NCBI GenBank assembly: GCA_015492645.1
Contig: WGER01000001.1
Location: forward strand, 15,926 to 79,925
DNA length: 64,000 bases
Direction: 5' to 3'
DNA from: Nitrospirota bacterium
GTDB taxonomy: Bacteria > Nitrospirota > Thermodesulfovibrionia > Thermodesulfovibrionales > JdFR-85
Numbering within the stretch: the stretch's first letter is position 1; each line of letters begins with the position of its first letter. The notes under the pieces are model-generated. The model saw only the letters and a list, made by a program, of their open reading frames with translations. It was not told the origin of the DNA and did no database searches. Made by a program: the position numbers and the translations under genes. This document shows positions 28,467 to 49,057 of this stretch, one piece after another.

Positions 28467-28472
28467 ATTTTT

Positions 28473-28658: not shown

Positions 28659-28664
28659 ATGTCA

Positions 28665-29063: not shown

Positions 29064-29299
29064 GAGGCAGGGTGGAAGTAGACAGGGAACTCTGTAAGGG
29101 CTGTGGCTATTGTGTGGTCACCTGTCCAAAGAAGGTGCTGGTTATAGATGAGGACTTCAATTCACAGGGCTATTATCCTGTAAAGGTGGCTCTGCCAGAG
29201 GAATGCACAGGTTGTTCTCTATGTGCAGAGATCTGTCCAGATATTGCGATAACCGTGTGGAAGCAGGTAAGCCCCCTGGTCAGGGAGACCTCAGGATGA
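29060..29299 (+). CDS. 2x[4Fe-4S] ferredoxin-domain protein
   Basis: [12 protein letters not shown] and [12 protein letters not shown] motifs. Confidence 0.85.
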
Positions 29300-29802: not shown

Positions 29803-30335
29803 ATACAGGAAGGATACTACCAAGGATCGTGATCTTCATCGCCGTCCTTGTAACGGGGGTCCTTGTATTGTCGTTTTTTTCCATCAGAAAGGAGCCGATA
29901 AGGGAGGGAGAGGTGGGTGTAGTAGAGAAGCGGGACGGAAGTTTCCGATTCTATCAGCCTGGGGACAGGCCCTTCCTGATACCCTTTCTCCAGAAGTTGA
30001 CAGTGATCTCCACCAGACCGCAGACCGTTATATTTAAGGAGGAAGAGGGTTTTAAAATAAAAAGGCCCGAAGGAGAGATGCAGATTGATGTGAGGGTCGT
30101 CTATTTTATCAAAGACCTCGAAAGTGCTCTCACCTCCTTTGGCGTGATGGAACCCCATAGAGAGATCAGGGAACTGCTCAGGAAGACCTTGACTGAACTG
30201 CTGAATGAGAGATTCTCTGAGGAGGCATACGAAGGGCGGAAGAGGCACCTTTTAATTGCAGAGTTACATCTGACCCTGAATGAGATATTCAGTAACAAAG
30301 GAGTGGCGATAACCAGTTTTGAGGTGAGGTTCTGA
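29799..30335 (+). CDS. membrane-anchored SPFH/band-7-like protein (tentative)
   Basis: N-terminal TM, then I.EGE.GVV.. and a beta/alpha pattern reminiscent of the SPFH fold. Weak call. Confidence 0.35.
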   Translation: MNTGRILPRIVIFIAVLVTGVLVLSFFSIRKEPIREGEVGVVEKRDGSFRFYQPGDRPFLIPFLQKLTVISTRPQTVIFKEEEGFKIKRPEGEMQIDVRVVYFIKDLESALTSFGVMEPHREIRELLRKTLTELLNERFSEEAYEGRKRHLLIAELHLTLNEIFSNKGVAITSFEVRF

Positions 30336-30337
30336 AG

Positions 30338-31297: not shown

Positions 31298-31300
31298 TTC

Positions 31301-32998: not shown

Positions 32999-33005
32999 CA
33001 TTTTT

Positions 33006-33014
33006 ATTATAACA
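33006..33014 (-). promoter_or_regulatory. extended -10 box TGTTATAAT (minus strand), 4/7 nt upstream of the tandem ATGs at 33001/32998
   Basis: The minus strand reads TGTTATAAT-AAAA-ATGATG. Suggests an internal promoter for the distal permease. Confidence 0.4.
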
Positions 33015-33066
33015 TATAACCAGCATTAGAGACTCCAATCAGTTTTTTCGGCTGGATTTGTCAGGC

Positions 33067-33142
33067 GGGCAGTGCTGGTTCGGACACAAAGAGACAAAAG
33101 ACGATAGGCAATGAGACGATAGGCAATGGCAGCACTGCACCC
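33067..33142. repeat. tandem 14-nt direct repeat (GACGATAGGCAATG x2, 33100-33113 and 33115-33128) enclosed by a 9-bp inverted repeat (GCAGTGCTG 33069-33077 / CAGCACTGC 33130-33138)
   Basis: Read directly in the 156-nt gap between two minus-strand genes. Confidence 0.6.
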
Positions 33143-33157
33143 TTATTTGATCTAACA

Positions 33158-34156
33158 CTATCCTTCAAGGACAAAGGAGGAAAAGAGCATGGGATAGACT
33201 GAGATGGCCGTAAATACCATCACCGAGATACCGCCAGCAGTTGTCCAGAGCCTCTGCCACCTCCTCAGTGGTAGTTCACTTCTGCCCTTAAAGAACTCTG
33301 ATAGGGATGGGAAGAGCCCAAAAAGGGTCCCCAGAAGAAGACTGATGTAGAGGGGATACCCGACATACCCATAGAGGCCCTGCAGGAGATCAAAGGGGCA
33401 GTGGTGGGTGGGTAGTTCATAGAAGTAGGGGGATATAAAACTGATTATTGATGCTATGCTGACTGGCAGAAAGACCAGTGCCAGTCCCCCCAGCAGATAC
33501 TTTAAGAAGTCCATCTGAAAAACAATGAAGCACAGGGCCACTATGAGGTAAAGGAATACCACAGTAAAGAAGAGATACTCCATCGGTCTGACAGGTGCTC
33601 CAGCAATTGAACTGGCAATTCCACCGGAGTTCTCACTGAAGAGGGCACCACAGCATGAGGTGATGATATTTGGTCTCAGCCCTAAGAAGAATCTCAACTG
33701 AAGGAGTGCCTCTGTTACAAACAGCGGGGTCATGACCAGCAGCAGGGCGTATCTCTTCTTCACAAATGGGACATCCTCTGTCCTCTGGTCCAGGTAATTA
33801 AGGAATATCCAGACTGCTGAGAAAAGGAAGAGGACCAATTTCATGCCAAGGACCCACCACCCAATGGGATTGGCATTGAGTGTGCCTGTGGCACACATGG
33901 CACCCACAAACTGGGTATGAAGATCATCTGCTGTGTATATAAAGAGAAACAGCCCCAGGAGGTTTACCCCGAGGACGAATGAGAGGATAGAGGAGAGCAG
34001 ATAGGTCCTTCTTTCGAGGCTTAATTGGAGGGCTGAACTGCTCTTACTATCCCAGTACCGTATTATCCTCAACCCTGCAAAGGCGCTATAAAGCATCATC
34101 ATATTTACTATTGCAGAACTGCCCAGCAGTGCCACTATCCCTGGATGCAGTATCAC
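33158..34156 (-). CDS. hypothetical polytopic membrane protein (~8-9 TM) with conserved-looking Cys/His motifs
   Basis: 332 aa and highly hydrophobic. Motifs MCATG, SCCGA and THHCPF. Overlaps the stop of the upstream ABC ATPase by 4 nt. Confidence 0.6.
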   Translation of the reverse strand: MILHPGIVALLGSSAIVNMMMLYSAFAGLRIIRYWDSKSSSALQLSLERRTYLLSSILSFVLGVNLLGLFLFIYTADDLHTQFVGAMCATGTLNANPIGWWVLGMKLVLFLFSAVWIFLNYLDQRTEDVPFVKKRYALLLVMTPLFVTEALLQLRFFLGLRPNIITSCCGALFSENSGGIASSIAGAPVRPMEYLFFTVVFLYLIVALCFIVFQMDFLKYLLGGLALVFLPVSIASIISFISPYFYELPTHHCPFDLLQGLYGYVGYPLYISLLLGTLFGLFPSLSEFFKGRSELPLRRWQRLWTTAGGISVMVFTAISVYPMLFSSFVLEG

Positions 34157-34836
34157 TGCCCTTCCTCAAGGATTATACCATCACGCATATGGATCACCCT
34201 GTCAACCAGAGACGATTCGTACACCAGGGGATCATGGGTGGCTATTACCACTGTCTTTCCTGCCCCCTTTATTTCTGAGATCATCCTCAGAAATTCCTCG
34301 GAGAGGTGGGTGTCCAGATGGGCTGTGGGTTCATCCGCAAGGACAATCTCAGGATCATTCACCAGTGCCCTCGCAATCGCCACCCTCTGCTGTTCACCCC
34401 CTGAGAGTTGCTCTACCCTGAAATTGGCCCTATGCGATATCTGTAGGAGGTCCATGACCTCCTCTGTCCTCCTTTTTATCTCTCCCAGTGATACCCCGGC
34501 AGGATAAAGTGGCAGCATTATATTCTCCTTCACCGTTATTCCTCTCAACAGATTGAACTGCTGGAAGATGAATCCACATCTCTGGCGTCTTATCTCCGTG
34601 AGAAACCTCTCGGGCAGTTTTGCAACATCTCTGCCATTGACCAGCACCCTGCCTGATGTGGGTCGACTCATACATCCGATAATGCTCAACAGAGAGGTCT
34701 TTCCTGATCCACTTGGCCCTTTCAGGATAACCACCTCATTTTTACCTATCCTGAGGGAGACACCCTTTACCGCGTGGACTTCATTCGGCTGACCCGGGTT
34801 GTATATCTTTGTTACATCCTCTAAGACGATGGCCAT
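34153..34836 (-). CDS. ABC transporter ATP-binding protein (MacB/LolD-type)
   Basis: Walker A GPSGSGKTS, signature LSGGEQQR and Walker B ILADEP. Confidence 0.9.
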   Translation of the reverse strand: MAIVLEDVTKIYNPGQPNEVHAVKGVSLRIGKNEVVILKGPSGSGKTSLLSIIGCMSRPTSGRVLVNGRDVAKLPERFLTEIRRQRCGFIFQQFNLLRGITVKENIMLPLYPAGVSLGEIKRRTEEVMDLLQISHRANFRVEQLSGGEQQRVAIARALVNDPEIVLADEPTAHLDTHLSEEFLRMISEIKGAGKTVVIATHDPLVYESSLVDRVIHMRDGIILEEGQ

Positions 34837-34837
34837 C

Positions 34838-35986
34838 TCAGGACCTTATCACCTCCTCAGGGTCTGTCATGGCAGCCTTCCAGGATGGTGCTATAGTGGC
34901 AGCCATATAGGGGACAACAGTGAGAAACAAGAGGACCATTAATTGGTATACCTCAATTACAGGCCTCAGTTTCAATGATGGAAAGAGCACCGACCATCCC
35001 TTAAGGGCTGACTCCAGCAGGGGGGCACCCAGCATGAACACATGGACAAAACCTGTTATGGTGCCAGTAAGGTAGGCCAGGGAAGAAAGGACAAGCCCTT
35101 CCCAGAACTTCATCTCCATTATATCAGAGGAGTCCCATCCTATCGCCTTCAGAACCCCTATCTCCCTTCTCTCCTCTGCAGAAAGTCCCGTTGCCTTGTC
35201 CCATGCAAAGATGAAGAAGGCGAGCAGTGCTCCTATGAACATACTCAGGACCATACCACTACGCCAGTCAAAAAGCGATTCATATGTCCTGAGGATCTCT
35301 GTACGTGTGATGGGCCTTGAAGAGGGTATCTTCTCCTTTATCTTCTTTGCTATGGTATCTATCTCAGAGGGATTTGCAACCCTCACCACAAGATCAACCG
35401 CATATCCCTCAGGAATCTGGAAGAACCTCTTTATCGTTTCCTCTTTGAGGACCACAAGGTCATTGGTGAGAATGGATGAGGATGTACTGAAGACTCCTGC
35501 CACCCTGAAGGGTCTTGCAATCCCCTCTGGGTCCACCATTACGAGACTGTCTCCTGTCCTGAGTAAGCCCGTTTCAGAGACACCACTTCCGATGAGACAG
35601 TCTTCAGGATCAAGATCTTCTCTACCCTTCAGAGGGAATTCGGAAGACCTTACCCCAAGGACTGTGAAGTTGGCTCCGGTGAAGGGGTCGTAATAGTATC
35701 CCCAGTATCTGGGGCTGGCATCAATAACCCCTGGAATAGAGACGATAGTATCCACCCAGTCAACTGGCACTAAGGCATGTCTGCCTGCCATGAGCCTCTG
35801 GACTGTTATCTCCGGGGATGACTGTAGCAGTAGTTCTGCCTCCCTTTTAAGGGCATGGGTCAAAAAGAGGATGGAGGAGATTATAAAGATGAGAAGAGAG
35901 TAGGCGACCAGAAGGGCCAGGTTCTTGTAACGTCTCCTGCAGAGCCCGGAGAGTGCAAACTCCAGTATAAACAGGTGACGTCTCAT
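34838..35986 (-). CDS. FtsX-family ABC transporter permease
   Basis: 4 TM with a large periplasmic loop and a C-terminal FtsX bundle. Start moved to ATG 35986 (ATGA overlap with the upstream small ORF). Confidence 0.8.
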   Translation of the reverse strand: MRRHLFILEFALSGLCRRRYKNLALLVAYSLLIFIISSILFLTHALKREAELLLQSSPEITVQRLMAGRHALVPVDWVDTIVSIPGVIDASPRYWGYYYDPFTGANFTVLGVRSSEFPLKGREDLDPEDCLIGSGVSETGLLRTGDSLVMVDPEGIARPFRVAGVFSTSSSILTNDLVVLKEETIKRFFQIPEGYAVDLVVRVANPSEIDTIAKKIKEKIPSSRPITRTEILRTYESLFDWRSGMVLSMFIGALLAFFIFAWDKATGLSAEERREIGVLKAIGWDSSDIMEMKFWEGLVLSSLAYLTGTITGFVHVFMLGAPLLESALKGWSVLFPSLKLRPVIEVYQLMVLLFLTVVPYMAATIAPSWKAAMTDPEEVIRS

Positions 35987-36285
35987 GGTATCTCCTCGGG
36001 TCTCCTTAGATGGGGAGGTACAGAGACTATAGAGCCTGATGGAAAGTGCTCCAGACAGCCTGGACAGTCTTGGAAGGCACTGAAAAGATCTGTCTGTGAT
36101 GGGTGTCGTGTGTACCTCGCCTCTGTCCATATTGAAAGGTCAGTGAGCATCAGGGAGGTCACCAGATCCTTCAATCCCGTAAGACGGACGAACTCCGTTT
36201 GTCCCCTGTAATGACCCCACAACAGGAGTCCCAGCAGTATCAGGCTCTCCGTAATGAGTAATATCAGAAATCTCCTGTATTTCAT
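35983..36285 (-). CDS. hypothetical small membrane-anchored protein
   Basis: 100 aa with an N-terminal TM. Translationally coupled (ATGA) to the downstream permease. AGAGGAAA RBS. Confidence 0.45.
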   Translation of the reverse strand: MKYRRFLILLITESLILLGLLLWGHYRGQTEFVRLTGLKDLVTSLMLTDLSIWTEARYTRHPSQTDLFSAFQDCPGCLEHFPSGSIVSVPPHLRRPEEIP

Positions 36286-36307
36286 TTATTTCCTCTGGGG
36301 TATATAT

Positions 36308-36329
36308 CGGGGCAGGCAGACCTGCCCCG
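36308..36329 (-). terminator. GC-rich hairpin between nosL-like gene and the next ABC module (terminator/attenuator or processing site)
   Basis: CGGGGCAGG-CAGA-CCTGCCCCG (9 bp), 6 nt after the NosL stop. No clear U-tract. Confidence 0.4.
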
Positions 36330-36334
36330 ACAGT

Positions 36335-36841
36335 TTACATCCCCTTCATCCCTTTCATCTTGTGGTGCTTCATCACCGGCAGGTCCGCCGGGGTCACCTC
36401 AGAGAACCTGATCATCTTTCTGCCCTTGTGGTCCTTCATGAAGGTCTCGGCATTTGCCTTCCCCTTAACAGGGATCAGTTCTGCACCCATCGGGCCCATC
36501 ACATCGCTGCCAACAATGAAGTACAGGTCCTCCTCATCAGCCCTTATTAACTTCGTGGTGTAGTACTCTGTCACATACAGTGCCTTTATCTGGGATTTGT
36601 CCTTACCGTATTTAGAGAGGTTGAAGTAGTACCTGAACATGTCCTTTGGTCCGTCAAAGAAGGCGTAACTGCCATCTGTGAACTCGATCTCTGCCACCCA
36701 GTTGGGGTATGGCTTGACCGCCATACCACAGACAGGACATTTGTCTTTATCACCTGGATGCTTTGGTCCCTCTGCAAGCCCATAACCAGCAGAGGTCATT
36801 ATTAAGAAACAAATAGACAGAACACACAGGACCTTCTTCAT
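36335..36841 (-). CDS. nosL: NosL-family copper chaperone-like lipoprotein/periplasmic protein
   Basis: Signal peptide, CPVCGM motif and a His/Met-rich tail (HHKMKGMKGM). Confidence 0.8.
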   Translation of the reverse strand: MKKVLCVLSICFLIMTSAGYGLAEGPKHPGDKDKCPVCGMAVKPYPNWVAEIEFTDGSYAFFDGPKDMFRYYFNLSKYGKDKSQIKALYVTEYYTTKLIRADEEDLYFIVGSDVMGPMGAELIPVKGKANAETFMKDHKGRKMIRFSEVTPADLPVMKHHKMKGMKGM

Positions 36842-36895
36842 AACAGACCTCCTTTTCAGTAAAGATTTCTGGATCGGATATGAAATGTCTGTGGG

Positions 36896-37186
36896 TTATG
36901 CCTCTGGTGGTTTAAAGACCTTTGAGGGGATCAACAGTTTATAAAGTGAGTCAGCGGAATACTGGAGAACCTCGCTGATATCATAAGAGAATGCTATCTC
37001 CGTCTGGGGTTCAAAAATCGTGCTTGAGAGGTCTGCAATGAGCCCTCTCGTCTTCTTTGAACATGTATCCAGAGAAAGGGCAACCTTCTGGCCTTTTCCA
37101 TTTATAGAATAGACCGGGGTAAGGACAGCAAAGAATATACTGGCAACAAAGATAAAAAGAATACATACGAGTAAAGGTTTTCTCAT
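36896..37186 (-). CDS. hypothetical small exported/membrane-anchored protein
   Basis: 96 aa with an N-terminal hydrophobic helix. ATGA overlap with the upstream PCuAC-like gene. Confidence 0.4.
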   Translation of the reverse strand: MRKPLLVCILFIFVASIFFAVLTPVYSINGKGQKVALSLDTCSKKTRGLIADLSSTIFEPQTEIAFSYDISEVLQYSADSLYKLLIPSKVFKPPEA

Positions 37187-37599
37187 AGTCTCTTCACCCC
37201 TGCGGTTATCTCAATCTCACCGCTTCTTTGAAACTGAAGTACAATGGTTACCTTCTCAGGCAGGTCATCAGGCAGTCCAAAGAGCATCAGGTGTTTGCTG
37301 CCCGGTTTTAGTTCCAGTTCAGAGTTAGACCTTATCACCATTTTCTGAACCTTTTTCATTCTTCCACCCTGGATATCATGGAGTTCACAGACGACACCAG
37401 GGTATCCCTTGAGGCCACATCCCACAAGTATATCCTCTCCACTGCCATCGTTCAGGATAAGCATAAATACCGAACCAACAGACCTCTTTGTGGAGACCAG
37501 TTGAGGCCATTTTATCGAAAGGAGGGGCTCCCCCTTTTCGCAGGCCAACAGCATCAGGGGCAGAATTAACCAGGTGATCATCTTTTTAACCGTTTTCAA
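37183..37599 (-). CDS. PCu(A)C-like (DUF461) periplasmic copper chaperone lipoprotein
   Basis: Lipobox LLAC. ELH...M...M...PGSKHLML pattern (H/M ... HxM) typical of PCuAC. Confidence 0.6.
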   Translation of the reverse strand: MKTVKKMITWLILPLMLLACEKGEPLLSIKWPQLVSTKRSVGSVFMLILNDGSGEDILVGCGLKGYPGVVCELHDIQGGRMKKVQKMVIRSNSELELKPGSKHLMLFGLPDDLPEKVTIVLQFQRSGEIEITAGVKRL

Positions 37600-38269
37600 T
37601 CTGAAGCCTCCCGCGAGCCATCCTGTACACCCTATTGGTCAGTTTTGCCAGGGCCGAGTTGTGAGTGACCATAATGAACGTTATCTGATTCTCACGATTC
37701 ATCTTCTGGAAAAACTCCATCACCTCAGCCTCTGTCTCCTCATCAAGGTCACCTGTGGGTTCATCAGCCAGGATTATCTGTGGTCTGTTTATAAAGGCCC
37801 TTGCAATGGCAACCCTCCTCTGCTGTCCACCACTCAACTGCGCTGGATAGGAGTTTACCTTGTCGTCTATCTTTAGCATCTTCAACAGTTCAATCGCATA
37901 CTCATAGGGATCTGTCTTTTCCCTGCTGAAGGCTGTGGGCAGGAGGACATTCTCAATCACGTTCAGGGTGGGCACCAGACTGGCAAACTGGTATATAAAA
38001 TTTATCTTTCTGTTTCTCAACTCACTCAGTTCATCGTCACTTATTGCCCAGATATCCGTACCATCAATGATGACAGTGCCAGAGTCGGGCTTGGTGAGAC
38101 CACCTATAAGGCTCAAGAGCGTGGTCTTACCACTGCCAGAATGGCCGAGTATAGACAGAAAATCCCCCCTCTGGACGGTGAATGAGACATTGTCCACCGC
38201 CTTGATTACATCTGACCCCACCCTGTATGTCTTCGTGAGGTCTTTCACTTCAATTATCGCATCCATCAT
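37586..38269 (-). CDS. ABC transporter ATP-binding protein (MacB/LolD-type)
   Basis: Walker A GHSGSGKTT, signature LSGGQQRR and Walker B ILADEP. Confidence 0.9.
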   Translation of the reverse strand: MMDAIIEVKDLTKTYRVGSDVIKAVDNVSFTVQRGDFLSILGHSGSGKTTLLSLIGGLTKPDSGTVIIDGTDIWAISDDELSELRNRKINFIYQFASLVPTLNVIENVLLPTAFSREKTDPYEYAIELLKMLKIDDKVNSYPAQLSGGQQRRVAIARAFINRPQIILADEPTGDLDEETEAEVMEFFQKMNRENQITFIMVTHNSALAKLTNRVYRMARGRLQIENG

Positions 38270-39477
38270 TCACCTCTCCTTATCGCATTATAGGGTTCCA
38301 TGATCATGGATCTTATTGCTGGATATAGAGCAGCTCCCACCCCTGTAATAAGAGACAGTGTTATACAGAGTACTATAAGTACCAGATACTCCCCTACGGA
38401 AGGCCATAGATAGGGGATGTTTAGTGCCTCTCTGATATGGCCCCTGAAGATATACAGAAAGGCACCTCCACCGATGATACCAAGGATACCGCCTATTAAA
38501 GACAGCATCGTCGCTTCTGTCATGATCAATTGAAAGATGTTTCGTCTCTTTGCCCCCATTGCCCTGAGGAGTCCAATCTCTCTCTGGCGTTCATTTACTA
38601 TCATGGAAAAGACGACACCTATCAACAGGAGGGCCATTATCCAGAGTATAAGGCTTACAGAGAGGATACTCCTGAGGAGGATGAAGAGTTGTCTCCTCAC
38701 AGAGGCTATCACCTGTTCAGCCTCTATAGCCTTTACTCCATCAACATCATGTTCAATAAATATGGCCACCCTCCTGGCACTTATTTCAGGGTCTACCTGG
38801 ACAAGGACGGTTGATATCTTGTTCACTGGGAGGTTTGCAGGGACAACACCCTTTTTTTTCTTTGATTCTTCTGCCAGTTTCTTCAGAGCATCATAGGGCA
38901 TGAACACAGAGTTATCTATAAAGTCCATCCCTGTCTCCTCAAGTATACCAACCACCTCAAATTCCTTACCGTAGAACCTTATCTTTGAGCCAACTGTATA
39001 GGCGGTGATCCCTCTACCGATAATCACCTCTTCGGTGCCGAGCGGTCTTGTGAGTTCCTTCGAAAGCCAGGGCATGATAGTAAAATCTGTCTCTGGGTCG
39101 AACCCTATAAGGAGCATGTTGGCCAGGTCACAGCACTGGTATGAGGCACTCTGAAGAAAGACCTGAGATGATGCCCTCTTTACACCCCGCACCCTTCTTA
39201 CCTTCTCCTCGACCTCTCTGTCCATATAAAAGATAGAGGGTTCTCCTGCAAGGAGGGCCGTTTTTGCCTTCGCCTCTGCCTCTGCAGGCACCACCATGAT
39301 GTCGGCACCGAGTCTGGCTGTCCCCCTTTTCAGGCTCCTCTCCACAGACTCTATCACAGTGGTTACAGCAAACAGTGTCCCCGCAACCACCATCACAGAG
39401 GCCACAATAGCGGTGCTTCTGAAGAGTTTCCTTCTGAGGTTTTTTCTTGCTATATGGAAAAGGCTTATACGTGCCAC
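38266..39477 (-). CDS. MacB/FtsX-family ABC transporter permease
   Basis: 403 aa. RLGADIMVVP...DPETDF periplasmic domain and a C-terminal FtsX bundle. Paralogue of 31301-32998. Confidence 0.85.
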   Translation of the reverse strand: MARISLFHIARKNLRRKLFRSTAIVASVMVVAGTLFAVTTVIESVERSLKRGTARLGADIMVVPAEAEAKAKTALLAGEPSIFYMDREVEEKVRRVRGVKRASSQVFLQSASYQCCDLANMLLIGFDPETDFTIMPWLSKELTRPLGTEEVIIGRGITAYTVGSKIRFYGKEFEVVGILEETGMDFIDNSVFMPYDALKKLAEESKKKKGVVPANLPVNKISTVLVQVDPEISARRVAIFIEHDVDGVKAIEAEQVIASVRRQLFILLRSILSVSLILWIMALLLIGVVFSMIVNERQREIGLLRAMGAKRRNIFQLIMTEATMLSLIGGILGIIGGGAFLYIFRGHIREALNIPYLWPSVGEYLVLIVLCITLSLITGVGAALYPAIRSMIMEPYNAIRRGE

Positions 39478-39535
39478 TTTGGTCTCCTTTTTTTATATAT
39501 TGGGTTTTAATTATTTGCTATAGACCTCTGAGAAG

Positions 39536-39805
39536 TCAAGTTAAAGGTGGTCTGTCAATCCTGTGAATGGGAGGAAAGGGTATATACAGGAATACACTGA
39601 AAGAGCCCTGAATGGGCCTGCAGTGGTAGAACCAGATGTATGAGACCGGTACAATAACAAGTATTGGATAAAAGATGTGATGTGTCTTATGTTTACACAC
39701 ATCTATGACAAGCCCATGAGACTCTGAAATGGGACCGGCAAGATAGAATGCACCGATAGAGTAGAAGACAAGTAATAGAACTATGATGAAGAGAATCTTC
39801 TTCAT
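39536..39805 (-). CDS. hypothetical small membrane protein
   Basis: 89 aa with 2-3 hydrophobic segments and His/Cys residues (CKHKTHH, YHC). Confidence 0.4.
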   Translation of the reverse strand: MKKILFIIVLLLVFYSIGAFYLAGPISESHGLVIDVCKHKTHHIFYPILVIVPVSYIWFYHCRPIQGSFSVFLYIPFPPIHRIDRPPLT

Positions 39806-39854
39806 AACTTAAGAATGCCTGGAGGAGAAATACCCTCCTCCAGGCACCATTTCC

Positions 39855-40919
39855 TTACTGTTCCAGGTCTATTGCCTTCTTCGGGAAGCCCTTTCTGTTC
39901 CAGTCAATGTCGATTCCGCAGAGGAATGGTCTTCCTCCGTCTTTTTCCTCTGGAATCACCACACCAAGGGCACCGTGGCACTTCTTACAGGCAGAGTAGA
40001 CCTTCACGACCCTCTTTGTCTTGGTGTCAATCACCACGATACCGCTGTCGTCCTGCTCAGGGACCTGTCTCACGGCAGCGAGGGCGAACCTTCCGTCAGG
40101 GGTGAAGTCTACATCATGGGGGTTACCACCTGTGATGATAAAGTCCTTCACCTTGCCAGTCTTGGCATCAACGACGACAACACCACCAGGGGCACCACCT
40201 GCCTCGGCATAGCCCACGCCATAGGGCTTGCCACCTTTCAGTTCATTACCCTCGGACTGCCATATTTCTGTCCCCTGGGGATTGAGTCTTGCACGGTGAA
40301 TGAAGTTACCGACACCCTCAATCTTACCAATAACCTTTTTGGTTTTTACATCCACAATGCTTATAAACCCACCGGGCATGTCACTGATATAGGCCTTTTT
40401 GCCATCCTTTGAGAAGGTGATGCCACATATGGACTTGCTGACAGGGAAACTGTCCAGGAGTTTGTGGGTCTTCGGGTCATAGACATAGACATGGCCATCA
40501 GCCATATCAGAGACCCATACAGTACCATCAGGGGCGATATTGGACCCACAGTGTTTTTTACCCAACTTGATCCAGTCGGTCTGTTTGCCCGTCTCCAGGT
40601 CGATCTCCTTTGCATAGCCATCCAGGCTGAATACATAAAGGGTCTTACCGTCCTTTGAGAGTGTGAGGGCGTCTGAATCCTTGCCGTGGGGTATCCTTGC
40701 AACCTTTCCTGTTACAAGGTCAACAAGGGCAACGTGACCGCCGTGAGTCTGGATGTAGGCAACGCCTTTTGTGAACTTAACACCTGCCCTTTCAACACCG
40801 GCTGCCGGACTCTGAGGCACTTCATAGCACTCACCCTTGCCGATTGCAGCATAAACGGAGGGAATAACAAGAACCATAATTAACATTGATAGACCAAGTA
40901 CCATCAATACCTTCTTCAT
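39855..40919 (-). CDS. secreted YVTN-type beta-propeller protein with C-terminal CxxCH motif
   Basis: Signal peptide. Repeated PDG/KDG..YV.D blades. SACKKCHG near the C-terminus. GGGAGGAAG RBS. Confidence 0.75.
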   Translation of the reverse strand: MKKVLMVLGLSMLIMVLVIPSVYAAIGKGECYEVPQSPAAGVERAGVKFTKGVAYIQTHGGHVALVDLVTGKVARIPHGKDSDALTLSKDGKTLYVFSLDGYAKEIDLETGKQTDWIKLGKKHCGSNIAPDGTVWVSDMADGHVYVYDPKTHKLLDSFPVSKSICGITFSKDGKKAYISDMPGGFISIVDVKTKKVIGKIEGVGNFIHRARLNPQGTEIWQSEGNELKGGKPYGVGYAEAGGAPGGVVVVDAKTGKVKDFIITGGNPHDVDFTPDGRFALAAVRQVPEQDDSGIVVIDTKTKRVVKVYSACKKCHGALGVVIPEEKDGGRPFLCGIDIDWNRKGFPKKAIDLEQ

Positions 40920-41106
40920 ACTTCCTCCCCTTTCTTTTGGAGTTTTTTGTTTCTCCTAATTAGTATCCCTCAGAACACCTACATTACCTTCTCTGGCTAC
41001 CACCCCCTTTCCTGAGTCTTTCCTGCAATTATAGTGTAAAAATTTTTTTTGCGGCTGTCAACTTCAATTTCAAATTTTAGAGCATCTGTTAATGTCAATT
41101 TGGAGT

Positions 41107-41126
41107 CCGGGGGGTATACCCCCCGG
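41107..41126 (-). terminator. perfect 8-bp GC hairpin just downstream of the extended YeeE stop
   Basis: CCGGGGGG-TATA-CCCCCCGG, 6 nt after the TAA at 41133-41135 (minus strand). Confidence 0.55.
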
Positions 41127-41132
41127 ATCCCC

Positions 41133-42185
41133 TTAGATATCCAAGTCCTTCATCGGCTTTATAAACAGGAAATAGACCATCGTCCAGTTACCGAGGACAA
41201 TAAAAATTGTGGCCACTATGCTTGAGATAGCCAAGGTTGACACGCCTGTCAACCCGTGTCCAACGTTTCAACCTCCGCCCACAGTGGCTCCGAATCCCAT
41301 TATGAGACCACCCACAAAGACCCTCAGTAGTTCCTCTGCACCAGGGGCCTTCAGTTTGAACTCCTTCAGTCCTATTGCACTTAGGGCCGCCCCGAGCGGG
41401 GTGCCGAGCACGAGCATGGCGCTCCAGGTAGGCTCCTTTCCCTTAAGAATAAAATTAAAGAGTTCTCTCGTTGGCCCGGTGTAGGAGACACCCCTTGCGC
41501 CACCACCCCATTTCTCTGAGGCGAACCAAGCGAGTACTATCACAACACCGATCAGTAAGCCGGCCACAGGCCACGGGTAACCCTTCTGTGGTTTCTGGTA
41601 TTTGCCCTTCAGCAGGATCGGGATCACTATCACAACAATGGCTGCAATAACTATCCATTTATTCACACCTATGATATTGTAAAGGGTAGGAACCTGTGTT
41701 TCGAGAGTGGTTTCTTCGAGCTGGGCATCGGTCATCAACTTCAGTCCCTGCTCAGTCTGCCAGATGTGTATGCTGGTCAGAAAGTTGTAAACCGGCTTGA
41801 GTATTCCATCCCTTGTTGTGAATATCCCTATCATGAAGCCCAGGACTGCAACCCAGGCAGCAAACAACCCCTCACCCACACGGTACCAGATACCGCTTCC
41901 ACAGCCACCTGCCAGCACTATCCCGAGACCGAAGATATAGCCCCCGATTATATTTGCCAGGGGAAAGAATGCCTGTCTCCTGAGTTCTTCGATCACTCCA
42001 ACATCTTCCAGGAGGTTCGCACCAATAATGGATACCACCAATGCAACCAGATAGGCCTTGAAGAGAGTAAAGTCATTGATGAAGATCAAGTCTCTGAAGG
42101 CAGTATTCATGCAGTAACGACCTCTCTGCAGGACCCACCCCGTGATTATACCCACCAGAAGGCCTGTGATGACAAGCGCTACCAT
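41133..42185 (-). CDS. YeeE/YedE-family sulfur (thiosulfate/selenium?) transporter, with in-frame TGA (41268-41270) read as selenocysteine
   Basis: The ORF track stops at GFGATVGGG-TGA. Read-through gives U-NVGHGLTGVSTLAISSIVATIFIVLG..., aligning residue for residue with the paralogue 60663-61892 (GFGAVVAKG-C-NIGQGMSGFSTLSAGSLVTVLFIILG). The 350-aa product matches family length. Confidence 0.8.
41234..41255 (-). promoter_or_regulatory. SECIS-like hairpin downstream of UGA 41270-41268
   Basis: The minus strand reads GGGTTGACA-GGCG-TGTCAACCT: 8 Watson-Crick pairs plus 1 GU, with a G-rich loop. It starts 12 nt after the UGA. Confidence 0.65.
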
Positions 42186-42264
42186 AAAGCCCTCCCTCTT
42201 CCCTTTCTTTTTAAGGGCTACGCCCCTCTTTTTATGAGAAAAATATTAGAGGATAACAGGGTGG

Positions 42265-43290
42265 TCAGTCAATAGGGGAATGATTAAAAATGCTTATAGA
42301 ATCTTTTATTTTATTAATCACTTCTTCTGGTCTGACCCCATTCATGCAACTGGTGTGCTCGCAGGTCCTTTTGAAACAGGGCCTGCATGGAAGGTCTGTC
42401 TTCAGGACATTCTGGATCTGTCCATAAGGGCCGGTTAGTTCTTCACTGGTGGGACCGAATATAGCAAACACAGGGGTGTCCATTGCCGCAGCAAGGTGCA
42501 TTGGACCAGAGTCATTGGTGAGCATAAACCTTGCCCCCTTGAGTACTGACGCAAGTGTTTTCAGGTCTGTCCTGCCTGTAAGGTCAATACATTCCACACC
42601 ACTCATCTCCGATATCTCCTTCGCCAGTTCGGTGTCAGAGGCGCCTCCGACAATCACTGGTGTGAGTGAGGGGAGCATGTGCTTTAAAAGGCCTATCGTC
42701 TCAGAGAAGTGTCCTGTAGGCCATATCTTTGTCTTCCACCTTGCACCGGGGGCCACCACATAGTAGGGGGTTCTAACAGGCGTTGGTGGTAGATGTGGTA
42801 ATGGAAACTCAACCCCGCCAGGGACAATCCCTATCAAAGGCAGGAGTTTCAAATATCTCTCAACAGCATGGGTCTTTCCACCTGCAGTGCTTCTGTTGTA
42901 AAACAAAGGGCTCCCTTCCCTTGCATCACTGAATCCCACCCTTAGAGGTGCACCGGAGACAAACGTGAGTATTCCACTCCTGAAGAGCCCCTGAATATCA
43001 AGGACCACATCATAGGCCTCTCTCCTGAAAGACATTTTTAGAAGGATTACATCCCTGAAAAACCTGATCACCCCCATTGGTCCCCTCCAACGGTCCTTGC
43101 TTACTACCCAGAGCCTGTTCAACATGGGATGTCCTCTCAGCAGACCATCAAACCCAGAGGCAACCAACCAGTCTATGTAGAACTCACCTGACCTGTAGAT
43201 CTGACTGAGTACCGGGAGGGTATGCACTATATCGCCGAGTGAACTCGGTTTTATAATTAATAGTCTCTTCTTGTCTCTGGACTCAGACAT
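42265..43290 (-). CDS. glycosyltransferase family 9 (heptosyltransferase-like)
   Basis: LLIIKPSSLGDIVHTLPVL N-terminus and ...NDSGPMHLAAA... motif. Confidence 0.85.
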   Translation of the reverse strand: MSESRDKKRLLIIKPSSLGDIVHTLPVLSQIYRSGEFYIDWLVASGFDGLLRGHPMLNRLWVVSKDRWRGPMGVIRFFRDVILLKMSFRREAYDVVLDIQGLFRSGILTFVSGAPLRVGFSDAREGSPLFYNRSTAGGKTHAVERYLKLLPLIGIVPGGVEFPLPHLPPTPVRTPYYVVAPGARWKTKIWPTGHFSETIGLLKHMLPSLTPVIVGGASDTELAKEISEMSGVECIDLTGRTDLKTLASVLKGARFMLTNDSGPMHLAAAMDTPVFAIFGPTSEELTGPYGQIQNVLKTDLPCRPCFKRTCEHTSCMNGVRPEEVINKIKDSISIFNHSPID

Positions 43291-44101
43291 TTAAGGGACG
43301 CGAGTCTACAATGTTTCTGTATCTGTCCAACCACCTTTCTCTCTGCATCTGCCTCCAATCCGGATCGGTCATTTTCACTACAACCCCGGAATTCAGTATC
43401 CTCTCTATAATCACCTCAAAGGCATTGGGCTGCTTGAGAAAGAGGGGATGGATCTCTGAAAGGACCTTGTGCAGAAGGGCCTCAGCAAGGCTACCACCTA
43501 TTGCCTTTGAAAGGTCCTCCTTTATCACCCTCCTGAGCAGATCTTCAAATCCCTCCACTGAAGTCATAGGCCTGGGTATGCCAGCAAGCCACTTCTTGAC
43601 AAGGGACTTGTATCTCTCTCTGTCGACCCTCTCCTGAAGAAGATTATAGACCGTTTTAAACAGTGCAAGAAACCCCTCTCTCGTGTCCTCTACAGAAGGC
43701 AGAGAACTCGCTATCCTTCTTATATCCGGTTCTGACAACTCAACCCTGAATACCCTTTTGAGGTCGGGAAGCATCACTTCTGTCAAAAAGTCCATTAAGG
43801 GGCCGGTCCCTTTTGCCCTCCTGGTCTCTTTAAATCTGAGTTCTTTTATCCTCTCATCATAGAGCCCCATTAAGAGTTCATCCTTCACCTTTTTATGGAG
43901 TTTCTCCAGTACAAGATTGAGCCTCTCTCTCTTTATCCCCCTCTTTATTATCTCGGAATAATTTACCTCCTTCCTGTAGACCACCATCCCGCCCAGAAAG
44001 ACAGTGGATACCATAGTACATTTTTCCCCTCCCATATCCTCCGTCTGGATATGGAATACCGCCCCCTGATAATTTACATTCTCATTAAACCCCTGAACCA
44101 T
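43283..44101 (-). CDS. hypothetical protein
   Basis: 272 aa with the N-terminal motif ...AVFHIQTEDMG.... Overlaps the GT9 start by 8 nt. No family recognised. Confidence 0.5.
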   Translation of the reverse strand: MVQGFNENVNYQGAVFHIQTEDMGGEKCTMVSTVFLGGMVVYRKEVNYSEIIKRGIKRERLNLVLEKLHKKVKDELLMGLYDERIKELRFKETRRAKGTGPLMDFLTEVMLPDLKRVFRVELSEPDIRRIASSLPSVEDTREGFLALFKTVYNLLQERVDRERYKSLVKKWLAGIPRPMTSVEGFEDLLRRVIKEDLSKAIGGSLAEALLHKVLSEIHPLFLKQPNAFEVIIERILNSGVVVKMTDPDWRQMQRERWLDRYRNIVDSRPLNV

Positions 44102-44245
44102 CTGAATTTATTTTAACATAGGCTACAGAGGTGAGACGTAAAATGCCCCTGAAGGCACGCCCCCTGTTAACCTGACATCTAATTAAATAACATATGCTTT
44201 CTGCAAAAGTATAAACCAATATATTATGTTATTAGAATTAACATC

Positions 44246-44274
44246 TTGATTAATAATACATTTTTTGTTATAAT
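44246..44274 (+). promoter_or_regulatory. sigma-70 promoter TTGATT-N17-TATAAT (with TGn), with -10 ending 7 nt before ATG 44282
   Basis: Read directly. This is the best-formed leaderless promoter in the window. Confidence 0.55.
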
Positions 44275-44281
44275 AAAAGCC

Positions 44282-44506
44282 ATGCTGGAGAGTAAGACCT
44301 TTCAGATGGCGCTGGAGATGGTAAGAAAGGGGCTCCAACAGGAGGGAGGTGATCTTGAGGTGGTGGAGTTTAAGGAGGGGGTTCTTTATGTGAGGCTTAA
44401 AGGCAGATGTAAGGGCTGTCTGATGGCCGGAATGACGATGAAGACCTGGGTTGAAAAGATCTTCCGGGAGGCGGTATCAGAGATCAGGGAGGTGAGGGAA
44501 TTGTGA
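44282..44506 (+). CDS. NifU C-terminal (Nfu-like) Fe-S cluster domain protein
   Basis: ...QQEGGDLEVVEF..GVLYVRLKGRCKGC... CxxC motif. Start moved from TTG 44246 to ATG 44282. Confidence 0.8.
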   Translation: MLESKTFQMALEMVRKGLQQEGGDLEVVEFKEGVLYVRLKGRCKGCLMAGMTMKTWVEKIFREAVSEIREVREL

Positions 44507-45615
44507 AGAGATTGGCCTTCTGTCTCATCTTCCTGCTCATTGCTGTTGATACCTTCTCAGCAGAACTTAAAGAGGTCAGATATAGCCATTCAGAGGAAAA
44601 GACCAGAGTGGTGTTTGAACTGGATCGCTCAGTTCAATATGTATCAGGGTTTCTCAGAGAACCTGCAAGGATATACTTTGATCTTAAGGATGTCAGGAAT
44701 GGCACCAGAAGGGATCAGGTGGAGATATCACGTGGACCGGTGAAGAGGATAAGGATTGGTAGATTCAAGAGGGATGTCCTAAGGATAGTTGTAGACCTTA
44801 AGAGCGAGGAGAGATACAGGACATTCTTTCTCAACTCCCCTCCGCGAATAGTCCTTGACATCATTCATGAGGCCGATCCATTCTTCAGGCCAAGGAGAGT
44901 GGTGGTGATTGACCCAGGACATGGCGGGGAAGACCCGGGTGCTATAGGGCCTGGAGGCTTGAAAGAAAAGGATGTTACCCTTGACATAGCGAAGAGGCTG
45001 AAGAAGATTCTGGAGAATAGATATAAACTGAAGGTGTATCTCACGCGTGATAACGACAGATTTGTGAGTCTCAAAGACAGGACCCTTTTAGCAAACCGTT
45101 ATAATGCCGATGTCTTTGTCTCTATTCATATCAATGCGAGCAGGAGAAAGACCCTGAGAGGGGTTGAGACCTATCTGCTGAACTGGACCAATGATGAAGA
45201 GGCCCTGAAGGTAGCAGCCAGAGAGAATGCCATATCAGTAGAGAAGATGAAAAAGAGCCAGACTGAACTGGGGATGATTCTTGCCTCCTTGGAAAGGGAG
45301 AGTAAGAGGGATGAGTCTCTAAGACTGGCCTATCATGTTCATAACAGCCTTGTTGGAAGACTCAGCAGATACTACAGAGAGATAGAAGACCTTGGTGTTA
45401 AACAGGCCCTCTTTTATGTCCTTGTAGGTGCAGAGATGCCCTCTGTGCTTGTTGAAGTGGGATTTATCAGCAATCCTAAAGAGGAGAGACTACTTAGGAA
45501 GGCCTCTTTCAGACAGAGGACTGCCGAGGCCCTTGGAAGGGGGATCTACAGATATATCCTCACACTACCCGGTTCACCCAAACTTGCAATGGCAGGTGAG
45601 GATGATACGGGTTAA
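44503..45615 (+). CDS. N-acetylmuramoyl-L-alanine amidase (AMIN + Amidase_3 domains)
   Basis: IDPGHGGEDPGA, ...SIHINA... and ...VEVGFISN... motifs with an N-terminal AMIN-like domain. Confidence 0.9.
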   Translation: MKRLAFCLIFLLIAVDTFSAELKEVRYSHSEEKTRVVFELDRSVQYVSGFLREPARIYFDLKDVRNGTRRDQVEISRGPVKRIRIGRFKRDVLRIVVDLKSEERYRTFFLNSPPRIVLDIIHEADPFFRPRRVVVIDPGHGGEDPGAIGPGGLKEKDVTLDIAKRLKKILENRYKLKVYLTRDNDRFVSLKDRTLLANRYNADVFVSIHINASRRKTLRGVETYLLNWTNDEEALKVAARENAISVEKMKKSQTELGMILASLERESKRDESLRLAYHVHNSLVGRLSRYYREIEDLGVKQALFYVLVGAEMPSVLVEVGFISNPKEERLLRKASFRQRTAEALGRGIYRYILTLPGSPKLAMAGEDDTG

Positions 45616-46460: not shown

Positions 46461-47512
46461 GCACGGGAAGGTTCTATCTCTTCATGCTCATAGGGATAAC
46501 CGGGATCCTTGCATATCTGTCCTTTCAGATAATAAGACCCTTTCTGACACCTATAGCATGGGCAATAGTTATGACAGTGGTCTTCTATCCCCTCTATGCA
46601 TATATTACGAGGTTCATAAGGTGGAAAGGCCTGGCTTCAGGACTAACCCTGGTGGTTGTTGCACTGATTATTATAGGACCATTCACATATCTTCTGGTAA
46701 ACCTTGCAGTGGAGATCAGGGACTTTCTCCATTATCTAAATACCAAGGGTATACCACAGATTGATGGATGGATGAAGACTGAAAGGGTAATCCTTTTGCA
46801 GGAACGCCTGAAAGAGGCATTGAACTTGAAGGAACTTGACCTGTCCTCCATGGTCTCCACTGCGGTCACCCGCTTGGGCAGGTCTGTACTGAGCAATGTC
46901 ACCACAGGGGTGGCCAATGTGGCATCTGTAGTTATAAACTTTGTATTTATGCTGTTTGCCATGTTCTTCATGCTGAAGGACGGCCCCGGATTCGTAGCAA
47001 GAATAGGTGACTACCTACCCTTTTCAGACCGACAGAAGGACAGACTCGCCACACAGATGAAGGATATGGTGATATCCACCATTTATGGAGGGGTTGTGGT
47101 CTCAGTTATACAGGGAATTCTTGGTGGCATAACCTTTCTGTTGCTCGGTCTTGGCGCACCAGTGCTTCTGGGTACTGCCACCGCAATAATGTCATTCATC
47201 CCTGCCCTCGGGGCCTTTGGAGTATGGGGCCCGGTCCTCGTCTATCTCATTGTGAAGAAACTCTACCTGAAGGCAATTATACTTTTTTTTGTAGGAACCT
47301 TTATAATAAGTATGGTGGACAATTTCCTGAAGCCCGTTATTATCAGCGGGCGTACCAGAATGCCCACGCTCCTGATATTTTTTAGTGTCCTCGGTGGATT
47401 GAGGTTCTTTGGCCTGATAGGTCTCGTCCTGGGGCCTCTTGTGATAGCAATGTTTATATCGGTTATTGAGATATTCAGAAATCTGGAAGGAGGTAGGTAT
47501 GGTAAGCCGTGA
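46457..47512 (+). CDS. AI-2E (PerM/UPF0118) family transporter
   Basis: 351 aa, ~8 TM, with ...DNFLKP.I... and GLIGLVLGP motifs. Confidence 0.8.
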   Translation: MSTGRFYLFMLIGITGILAYLSFQIIRPFLTPIAWAIVMTVVFYPLYAYITRFIRWKGLASGLTLVVVALIIIGPFTYLLVNLAVEIRDFLHYLNTKGIPQIDGWMKTERVILLQERLKEALNLKELDLSSMVSTAVTRLGRSVLSNVTTGVANVASVVINFVFMLFAMFFMLKDGPGFVARIGDYLPFSDRQKDRLATQMKDMVISTIYGGVVVSVIQGILGGITFLLLGLGAPVLLGTATAIMSFIPALGAFGVWGPVLVYLIVKKLYLKAIILFFVGTFIISMVDNFLKPVIISGRTRMPTLLIFFSVLGGLRFFGLIGLVLGPLVIAMFISVIEIFRNLEGGRYGKP

Positions 47513-48623
47513 AGAGTTGAGAGAACTGGAAGAGATCACAGCAGGTGAACACTATTATGTGAGCCTCTATCTTAATGTTGATCCAATTACAAATCCGAAG
47601 GGGGAATACATCACCCACCTGAAGAATCTCATAAAGGAGGCTGAAGAGAATACGCCCAAGGAGATATATAAGTCAATAAAGGGTGACATTGAAAGGATTG
47701 AATCTTATATAGTTACCAATAAGAGGGAGTTCAAAAGGGCGCTGGTGATATTTTCTTCTGGAATGACCGGCCTCTGGAGGATCTATCATCTGTCAGTGCC
47801 GGTAAAGAATCAACTCGTAATCGACATGACCCCCTGCATTGAACCACTGCTGGACCTGATAGATAATTACCCGAGATATCTTGTGCTTATTATAGACAAG
47901 GAACATGGGAGGGTTTTTATAGTACAGCAGTCAGAGATCATGGAGTATGCCATGGTACACACCCCTGATGTGCCGGGCAAACACAAAAAAGGGGGATGGT
48001 TTGCACTTGCAGAAAAAAACTATCAGCGACATATAGACTACCATGTAGGAATACATTTAAAGGAGGTTGAAAAGACCCTTGAGGACCTTCTACATAATGA
48101 GAGGATCGATATCATCTTTGTTGGGGGGCACGAAGAGGCGAGGACAAGATTTCTCCAGATATTGCCCCAGCATATCAGGGAGAAGGTGAAGGGGGAATTC
48201 AATGCGGAGATCCTTATAAGACCGGATGACGTCCTTCAGAAGGTCAGTCCATTAATACAGGAATATGAGAGGCAGAAGGAGAGGGGGTTGCTGGAGAGGC
48301 TCATAACCAAGGCACTGAAAGGTGATGCTGCAGTGCTTGGAGTGGATGATACAATCACAGCCCTCTGGGAGGGGAAGGTGCATATACTTGTTATTGATAG
48401 GGACCTTGCCATGAGTGGATTCAGATGTAAGGGATGCGGGTTTCTTACTGTCAACCATATGGATATCTGTCCTTACTGTGCTAATAATATGGAAGAGGTA
48501 GAGCATATAGGTGATTACATGTCTCAGAAGGCCCTTGAACAGGGTGCTACAGTTGAGGTTATTGCCTATGAAAAGGATCTGCTGAGAGAAAGGGGTGGTG
48601 TTGGGGCGATACTCCGGTACTGA
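47499..48623 (+). CDS. bacterial eRF1-like (baeRF/VLRF1-type) protein with C-terminal zinc ribbon
   Basis: C-terminal ...VLGVDDT..AL..G.V..L........CxxC...CPYC....E...........GA.VE.I.......GGVGAILRY. Start at ATG 47499 behind GGAGG. Confidence 0.6.
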   Translation: MVSREELRELEEITAGEHYYVSLYLNVDPITNPKGEYITHLKNLIKEAEENTPKEIYKSIKGDIERIESYIVTNKREFKRALVIFSSGMTGLWRIYHLSVPVKNQLVIDMTPCIEPLLDLIDNYPRYLVLIIDKEHGRVFIVQQSEIMEYAMVHTPDVPGKHKKGGWFALAEKNYQRHIDYHVGIHLKEVEKTLEDLLHNERIDIIFVGGHEEARTRFLQILPQHIREKVKGEFNAEILIRPDDVLQKVSPLIQEYERQKERGLLERLITKALKGDAAVLGVDDTITALWEGKVHILVIDRDLAMSGFRCKGCGFLTVNHMDICPYCANNMEEVEHIGDYMSQKALEQGATVEVIAYEKDLLRERGGVGAILRY

Positions 48624-48697: not shown

Positions 48698-49057
48698 ATG
48701 AAAATCACATCATTAATGCTGTCCGTTTTAGGGGTTCTGCTCGTTGCAGGACTGGTCTTTGCGGGAGGTGATATACAGAGGGGCAAGGCCCTCTTTGATG
48801 ACCCCTCCCTCGGTACAAATGGTAAGAGTTGTTCCAGTTGTCATCCAGAAGGGAGAGGGATTAATGGACAGAAAGAGAGTTTCACAATTATGGGTAAAAA
48901 GCAGGCAACAATTGAAGATGCAATTAACTTCTGCATCCAGAATGCCCTGAAGGGTCAGGCACTCTCAAAGGACTCACCAAAGATGAAGGATCTGGCAGCC
49001 TATCTAAAGACACTGAAGGGAGAAAAGAGAAAGAGGAAGAGAATAAAAGGTTGTTAA
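48698..49057 (+). CDS. periplasmic monoheme c-type cytochrome
   Basis: Signal peptide, a single CSSCH and a Lys/Arg-rich tail. AAGGAGG RBS. Confidence 0.75.
   Translation: MKITSLMLSVLGVLLVAGLVFAGGDIQRGKALFDDPSLGTNGKSCSSCHPEGRGINGQKESFTIMGKKQATIEDAINFCIQNALKGQALSKDSPKMKDLAAYLKTLKGEKRKRKRIKGC

Follow-up and report, generated by a model that had tools for sequence, protein, structure and literature searches.

NosDFYL matures the nitrous-oxide reductase propeller NosZ. To our knowledge, combinations of heme c with a propeller use separate cytochrome domains, and metallo-propellers such as NosZ use all-His rings. The FetABCDEF system of C. jejuni combines two permeases and an ATPase with two thioredoxins and a DUF2318 protein, and all of these parts are required for FetMP-dependent growth under iron limitation (PMC10783030). 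Here, we analysed a stretch of 64,000 nucleotides from a Nitrospirota bacterium (the window; assembly GCA_015492645.1, contig WGER01000001.1, positions 15,926 to 79,925 of the forward strand), which encodes two propeller proteins. W1, an open reading frame (ORF) of 354 amino acids (aa) at 39855-40919 on the minus strand, is a Sec-exported six-bladed propeller with both a CxxCH motif and a Cys/His ring, and W2, an ORF of 319 aa at 30338-31297 on the plus strand, is its six-bladed lipoprotein paralogue. An initial annotation, made from the letters of this stretch, had placed both ORFs at exactly these coordinates, and all the peptides quoted in it were found in the translations. We propose that W1 and W2 belong to a family of periplasmic six-bladed propellers with two separable cofactor sites, a predicted heme c and a thiophilic metal, probably copper, and we give this proposal an even chance of being right. 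The sequences give strong and mutually consistent evidence; heme attachment, the identity of the metal, the roles of the ligands and the direction of transfer are what we infer.

A BLASTP comparison of W1 with W2 gave 36% identity over 266 aa (E 2e-66), and the match joins residues 51-315 of W1 to residues 33-297 of W2. The paralogy had been recognised before but had been confined to the C-terminal halves, while the match spans nearly the whole mature protein. AlphaFold2 models were obtained for W1 (predicted local distance difference test, pLDDT, 90.8; predicted template modelling score, pTM, 0.84; 68-sequence alignment) and for W2 (pLDDT 91.7; pTM 0.86; 28-sequence alignment). Each model contains 24 strands that form six four-stranded blades, and the C-terminal strand (residues 333-339 in W1) pairs with the three N-terminal ones to complete the last blade. 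The earlier description as YVTN propellers holds in so far as W1 passes the YVTN repeat model (TIGR02276, 47.9 bits against a cut-off of 27.85; W2 reaches 14.8 bits only), but the blade number is six, whereas typical YVTN and YncE propellers have seven. Read by eye, the N-terminus of W1 carries a Sec-type signal (MKKVLMVLGLSMLIMVLVIPSVYA/A, ending VIPSVYA/A) and that of W2 a lipobox (...FAVLG/C), in agreement with the initial annotation, and the twin arginine is absent from both. The lipobox was also seen in most of the subfamily of W2, whose N-termini were inspected directly. Sec and lipoprotein signals without a twin arginine suit the insertion of a cofactor in the periplasm.

Conservation was read from two sets of relatives. 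At E<1e-48, W1 matched 97 homologues, and the next matches, generic YVTN proteins, came only at about 1e-18. W1-type conservation was taken from an alignment of 99 sequences; the W2 subfamily comprises 16 lipoproteins with 32-41% identity. The W1 motif C311-K-K-C314-H315 (39975-39989, minus strand), a putative heme c attachment motif, opens helix 312-318 in the model, right after the outermost strand D of blade 5 and on the linker to the innermost strand of blade 6, and the W2 motif C293-K-P-C296-H297 (31214-31228, plus strand) stands at the start of helix 293-300. From the amino-acid composition of the window, 8e-4 CxxCH motifs would be expected per 350 aa. The motif, already noticed in both paralogues, is invariant in all 99 aligned W1-type sequences, in 16 of 16 members of the W2 subfamily and in 10 further, more diverged representatives, which gives good support to a conserved cofactor site. 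That this site attaches a covalent c-type heme, which the initial annotation had offered as one option, is the most economical reading, and it is a prediction from sequence.

Heme c is favoured at this first site because the CxxCH is invariant, its His is never displaced, it lies at a helix start and the proteins carry Sec or lipoprotein export signals, and also because a ResA/TlpA-type reductase is encoded in the operon, another cytochrome domain is encoded in the window and one relative contains a cytochrome c domain. In this relative (P0153, 479 aa), the propeller is interrupted by the cytochrome c domain, which matches PF13442 with 31.4 bits (cut-off 27). One distant relative carries C-R-K-A-C-H, that is, a C-x3-C-H spacing with the Cys-His pair kept, which is a known variant of the heme motif. 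H62 lies within H59-G-G-H62 in the B-C loop of blade 6 (40734-40745, minus strand) and is present in 94 of the 94 non-gap W1-type sequences, with H59 in 93 of the alignment; H62 is invariant in the W2 type as well. In a clade without CxxCH, Ala replaces H62, and Ala or Gly occupies position 59. Since H62 is lost exactly when CxxCH is lost, it suggests itself as the sixth ligand. A covalent c-type heme on the helix of the blade 5-6 linker would serve electron transfer, with H315 as the proximal and H62 as the likely distal ligand.

CxxCH was seen six times in the ORFs of the window, with about 0.05 expected from composition. A 119-aa protein (48698-49057, plus strand) with a single CxxCH matches the SoxA/TsdA-type cytochrome c domain (PF21342) at 34 bits, and its gene adjoins a bacterial eRF1-like gene (baeRF family 10) at 47466-48623. 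One CxxCH is also found in a 144-aa protein (11102-11536, plus strand) that matches the DsbC N-terminal domain.

The same residues can be read without heme. C311, C314, H315 and H62 would then form a zinc or copper site of the Cys2His2 type, structural or for metal transfer, and the propellers would be metallochaperones, similar to AztD or PedA2, that hand metal to or from a MacB-type ATP-binding cassette (ABC) transporter. CxxCH and H62 are gained and lost together, as joint ligands would be, copper chaperone genes are co-encoded, and the propeller gene lies tight against the permease gene in 64-65 of the best 80 related loci, over which all neighbour-gene counts were made. Weak matches to AztD and to the ABC-associated PedA2-type family point the same way, but they fall far under the cut-offs (17 against 400 bits for AztD; 77 against 287 bits for TIGR03866). 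Moreover, the His after the second Cys is invariant, even with the CX3CH spacing, which is the signature of heme c and an awkward geometry for chelating a single metal, and the relative with the fused cytochrome c domain argues against a chaperone as well. In bacteria that make c-type cytochromes, a periplasmic CxxCH is normally a substrate for heme attachment. We consider the metallochaperone reading unlikely, and the putative heme is retained for the first site in what follows.

The second site is a ring of six residues, one per blade, each of which is the second or third residue of the innermost strand A in the model. On the minus strand, these are D83 in blade 1 (40671-40673), C124 in blade 2, the second residue of its strand A (40548-40550; 95/99), C165 in blade 3 (40425-40427; 99/99), H208 in blade 4 (40296-40298; 99/99), H268 in blade 5 (40116-40118; 97/99) and C334 in blade 6, on the C-terminal closing strand (39918-39920; 96/99). 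Since the same register of strand A recurs in all six blades, the ring is predicted to lie at one mouth of the central channel. Position 83 is His in more distant members and in a ring-only clade described below, so that the ring becomes Cys3His3. M139, M181, W220 and E226 are also near-invariant in the W1-type alignment. In the model, M139 belongs to the B-C loop of blade 2 and M181 to that of blade 3, on the same face as the ring, and the H59-G-G-H62 loop and the CxxCH helix are on this face too; D-A linkers and B-C loops occupy one face in propellers.

Three Cys, two or three His and two Met make up the ligand set of a Cu(I) or Cu-thiolate centre, and this composition, together with the Cu(I) chaperones NosL and PCuAC encoded in the window and NosL in 20 of the 80 loci, favours a thiophilic metal, most probably copper. 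The second site would accordingly comprise D/H83, C124, C165, H208, H268 and C334 together with M139 and M181 as a thiophilic-metal centre, most probably of copper. Met-rich inserts were found in two distant relatives (P0139 and P0150; e.g. AGMDIGEMTGEGMP), and a NosL homologue encoded in the window (36335-36841, minus strand) ends in a Met/His-rich tail, MKHHKMKGMKGM. Such tails and inserts are typical Cu(I)-binding sequence features.

The conserved Cys could also act without any cofactor, as redox-active or structural disulfides, with CxxC as a thioredoxin-like dithiol and the propellers as partners or substrates of the ResA/TlpA-like oxidoreductase encoded beside them, within a thiol-redox relay of the periplasm, similar to what is proposed for FetA and FetEF. 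A thioredoxin-like gene lies in the operon, other Cys-rich membrane proteins are encoded in the cluster, and the layout resembles that of FetABCDEF, where CXXC motifs are proposed to act by disulfide chemistry (PMC10783030). However, the three Cys of the ring are an odd number and always come with conserved His and Met, a disulfide switch would give no role to H62 or to the His that follows CxxC, both of them invariant, and the fold of the family is not that of thioredoxin. We therefore judge a purely disulfide-based function improbable and keep to two cofactor sites.

Three clades of the family separate the two sites. In the W1-type clade, CxxCH and H62 occur together with the full ring. In the W2-type clade, only H62, H208, W220, E226 and CxxCH are invariant over the 16 sequences, H59, H268 and C334 are lost, and C124 and C165 are each kept in 3 of 16. 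W2 itself retains CxxCH, H45 (the equivalent of H62), H190 (the equivalent of H208), W202 and E208, and it is without equivalents of W1 H59, H268 and C334. The initial annotation had drawn attention to a Cys-Gly in two blades of both paralogues; C124 and C165 of W1 and C106 and C147 of W2 are indeed present, but they are a shared feature of the two proteins and not of the two subfamilies, being conserved, of these two, in the W1 type only. W2, one of the three W2-type proteins with these residues, is thus atypical in its own subfamily. The third, ring-only clade (P0277 and P0281-P0292; length about 293 aa; one member is annotated as Methylomirabilales) retains H83, C124, C165, H208, H268, C334, M139, M181 and E226, and the CxxCH segment is wholly absent. 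H208 is the sole ring residue kept in all three clades. CxxCH with H62 and the ring with the two Met thus occur separately, which speaks for two independent sites rather than one composite site.

A composite site, in which CxxCH and the blade Cys would bind one metal jointly, had been the other option of the initial annotation. All the conserved Cys and His map to one propeller face in the model (D-to-A linkers, strand-A starts and B-C loops), and all are co-conserved in the 97-member W1-type subfamily, which is consistent with a joint site. By contrast, the blade Cys are absent from 13 of the 16 W2-type proteins, all of which have CxxCH, CxxCH is absent from 12 ring-only proteins that have C124, C165 and C334, and the topology of a propeller would let CxxCH, which follows the outermost strand of blade 5, start at the rim rather than at the axis. 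This option is disfavoured by the W2-type and ring-only proteins, and we regard it as very improbable.

The loci of the ring-only clade that were examined have no ABC transporter nearby. Instead, a different conserved operon surrounds the same ring (5444-8885 in locus L089 and 2932-6341 in L090), in which the propeller gene comes after genes for a NapH/NosR-type Fer4_5 membrane protein of 655-664 aa and a small protein with a PCYCGC motif, and precedes CMD and radical SAM genes. The pairing with a NapH/NosR-type membrane protein suggests that the ring is redox-active, probably catalytic, and requires electrons. A separate arrangement was seen in a MAG (metagenome-assembled genome) of a magnetotactic Nitrospirae (L040, JADFXO010000004.1, about 1-9000), which holds a tandem array of three to four family paralogues with ORFs of 235, 199, 420 and 369 aa; in one of these, P0078, C124 and C334 are missing and the N-terminus is extended by about 110 aa.

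Pfam and NCBIfam scans of W1 and W2 returned generic propeller matches only, with the cytochrome D1 propeller family above its Pfam cut-off (32.8 against 25.5 bits). Named families were rejected: YncE (NF052280) scored 42 bits against a cut-off of 400 and has seven blades rather than six, PedA2-type TIGR03866 scored 77 against 287 bits, and the zinc metallochaperone AztD (NF038015) 17.2 against 400 bits. So was the lactonase-type nitrous-oxide reductase L-NosZ (NF052460; cut-off 700 bits), on which W1 scored 50.7 and W2 18.3 bits. A profile search of 1.84 billion representatives was swamped by giant multi-propeller YVTN proteins and left about 15 usable single-domain relatives. A PDB profile search and Foldseek matched nothing beyond generic propellers of the YVTN, WD40 or designed kind (1l0q best, template modelling score 0.59), with NirN (6rtd) and NirF (6tv2) among the PDB matches, and they yielded no solved specific relative and no cofactor-bearing analogue. 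We found no literature on the combination of NosL, FtsX and a propeller, and no relevant literature on DUF4418. The family of W1 and W2, for which neither a specific Pfam or NCBIfam model nor a solved relative nor literature was found, is uncharacterised.

The match to NF052460 raises the question of whether W1 is a divergent clade III nitrous-oxide reductase of the L-NosZ type, whose ring would be a CuZ-like site. L-NosZ occurs in Nitrospirota without the canonical nos accessory genes (PMC13477213), and a NosL gene lies close to that of W1. However, 50.7 bits is far from 700, and other YVTN propellers, including propeller-cupredoxin fusions, reach 82-130 bits on the same model, so that the match reflects generic repeat similarity. 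The models have six blades, the ring is a mixture of Cys and His and not all His, and a cupredoxin (CuA) domain gave no Pfam match in W1, which ends about 40 aa past its last blade. We consider it extremely unlikely that W1 is an L-NosZ.

Both propeller genes are embedded in a cluster of transporter and metal-handling genes. On the minus strand, a YeeE/TsuA-type thiosulfate transporter gene (41268-42185, by domain match) lies directly upstream of W1, and W1 is followed by a gene for a small membrane protein of 89 aa with the Cys/His motifs DVCKHKTHH and YHC (39536-39805). Similar ORFs occupy the same place, between the W1 and permease genes, in four related loci (cluster c21; e.g. L009 1840-2142). 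Then come a MacB/FtsX-type ABC permease of 403 aa (38266-39477; PF12704, PF02687), an ABC ATPase of 227 aa (37586-38269; PF00005), a PCuAC-type Cu(I) chaperone lipoprotein of 138 aa (37183-37599; PF04314, 53.7 bits), a 96-aa ORF, the NosL-type Cu(I) chaperone of 168 aa with a CPVCGM motif (36335-36841; PF05573, 101 bits) and a 100-aa ORF. The strand continues with a second MacB/FtsX permease of 430 aa (34838-36130), a second ABC ATPase of 227 aa (34153-34836), a polytopic membrane protein of 332 aa with the conserved Cys motifs AMCATG, SCCG and HHCPFD (33158-34156) and a long FtsX permease of 566 aa (31301-33001), the last of which is the second permease of the canonical operon described below; the two permeases and the second ATPase were identified by domain match. 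In 7-8 related loci, NosL and the second FtsX/ATPase pair are accompanied by the 332-aa protein (cluster c12). Neither this protein nor the 89-, 96- and 100-aa ORFs matched a Pfam or NCBIfam family, and the N-terminal extension of the 566-aa FtsX showed no similarity to DUF4418 that would make it a fusion. Converging on this series from the plus strand are genes for a membrane-anchored ResA/TlpA-like thiol:disulfide oxidoreductase with a WCPPC motif (29203-29802) and an SPFH/Band 7 protein of 178 aa (29799-30335), both identified by domain match, and then W2.

Directly after the W1 stop codon, a hairpin with a perfect 12-bp stem (TGCCTGGAGGAG-loop-CTCCTCCAGGCA) occupies 39816-39846, between the W1 stop (39855) and the start of the next ORF (39805), and it is followed on the minus strand by TTCTTAAGTT. 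This hairpin may be an attenuator or stabiliser that raises the expression of W1 above that of the downstream ABC genes. Higher expression is common for the periplasmic partners of ABC systems. An Rfam scan of 28000-45000 returned no credible riboswitch upstream of W1, and the counts of promoters and terminators were no higher than the shuffled expectation.

Relatives of the two propellers were found in 213 genomes in a scan of one genome per species. The hosts are mostly Nitrospirota (Thermodesulfovibrionia and magnetotactic lineages) and Desulfobulbia, together with single Acidobacteria, Chloroflexota and archaeal MAGs. Among the 80 loci, an FtsX/MacB permease adjoins the propeller in 64-65, an ABC ATPase is present in 56-62, a TPR protein in about 35, NosL in 20, a thioredoxin-like protein in 13-18, an FtrD-like/DUF2318 protein (PF10080), which this window lacks, in 13, DUF4418 in 10 and PCuAC in 5-7. 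YeeE lies directly upstream in 12-14 of them, including members only 35% identical to W1. In Desulfobulbia/Thermodesulfobacteriota MAGs (L005, L007 and L008), the same parts form one operon, with the canonical order W1-type propeller, FtsX (400), ATPase, FtsX (566), W2-type propeller, thioredoxin and SPFH. The 566-aa FtsX gene lies between both propeller genes in all three of these MAGs, and the SPFH gene comes right after the thioredoxin gene in L007 and L008. In L008, a locus of the Desulfobacterota type, ccoN and ccoO of a cbb3-type oxidase (12365-14666) directly follow the seven-gene propeller/ABC operon on the same strand; cbb3-type oxidase is a copper- and heme-dependent enzyme.

Within this frame, we propose how the parts may work together. 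W1, with both sites, would be the cofactor-bearing redox protein. W2 is membrane-anchored and has the heme site only, and it is therefore placed as an electron or docking partner. The heme of W1-type proteins would supply the ring with electrons, and a NapH/NosR-type protein would do so in the ring-only clade. The MacB/FtsX transporter, the ResA/TlpA-like thioredoxin, NosL and PCuAC may keep the cysteines reduced and load or service the metal site, in a way that would parallel the maturation of NosZ by NosDFYL and the support of FetMP by FetABCDEF. In its most far-reaching form, the proposal makes the W1 type periplasmic redox enzymes of a new class, in which a copper or copper-sulfur centre in the propeller channel (three Cys, two or three His and two Met) is wired to a single c-type heme on an inter-blade linker and assembled by a dedicated ABC transporter of the MacB type, aided by NosL, PCuAC and a TlpA-like reductase, while the ring-only clade is the same module fed by a NapH/NosR-type protein; we put this forward tentatively, as a possibility that is rather less probable than not. 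As its substrate, such an enzyme could use a small compound of sulfur or nitrogen, or else Cu(I). If the latter were true, the W1 type would be an oxygen-independent cuprous oxidase for anaerobes.

Several points weigh against a heme and copper assignment. The co-variation of CxxCH with H62 would be equally expected of a Cys2His2 zinc or copper site. No cytochrome c family was matched around CxxCH in the Pfam and NCBIfam scans, and the PDB searches gave no solved precedent for a lone CxxCH embedded in a propeller linker. Copper is no universal link, because NosL is found in only 20 and PCuAC in only 5-7 of the 80 loci, and the FtrD-like genes with the FetABCDEF-like layout point equally to iron. 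The ABC transporter might have an export task that has nothing to do with maturation, and all family members come from MAGs.

If heme and metal are confirmed, the family would represent an undescribed compact arrangement, with heme c outside a cytochrome domain beside a Cys/His/Met ring in a six-bladed channel. If the proposal is true, the widespread and functionally obscure combination of a MacB-type ABC transporter, thioredoxin, FtrD-like protein and NosL, whose layout is related to that of FetABCDEF, would also gain a defined client in the periplasm. The three natural variants, with both sites, with the heme site only and with the ring only, are a ready design for dissecting the sites experimentally, in a family that is present in at least 213 species-level genomes.

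Among known systems, NosZ with NosDFYL resembles the W1 cluster in a periplasmic propeller whose blades each carry a conserved ligand where the innermost strand begins. A central metal site and a separate site of electron entry, both of them predicted for W1, are further common features, as are a co-encoded ABC transporter and NosL. The differences are six blades in W1 against seven in NosZ, a Cys3His2-3 ring against seven His, and CxxCH against a cupredoxin CuA domain; the W1 transporter is of the MacB/FtsX type, while NosFY (ABC-2) works with NosD, and neither NosD nor NosY was found in the W1/W2 cluster. Compared by domain architecture only, FetABCDEF shares two FtsX-type permeases, one ATPase and membrane-associated periplasmic thioredoxin(s), and a DUF2318/FtrD-like Cys-rich protein is shared by 13 of the related loci. 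FetM (Ftr1) and FetP (P19) were not found in the window cluster, where the propellers stand in their place. YncE, PedA2 and AztD are likewise YVTN-type periplasmic propellers beside ABC transporters with a link to metal acquisition; however, they have seven or eight blades and neither CxxCH nor a Cys ring, and their transporters are not of the MacB type. Finally, cytochrome cd1 nitrite reductase, NirN and the quinohemoprotein dehydrogenases are periplasmic and combine a covalent heme c, which is putative in W1 and W2, with a propeller. A cytochrome c domain of its own, about 100 aa long, holds their heme c, and their eight-bladed propeller binds heme d1 or pyrroloquinoline quinone, whereas W1 and W2 have six blades and carry the motif within a linker between two of them.

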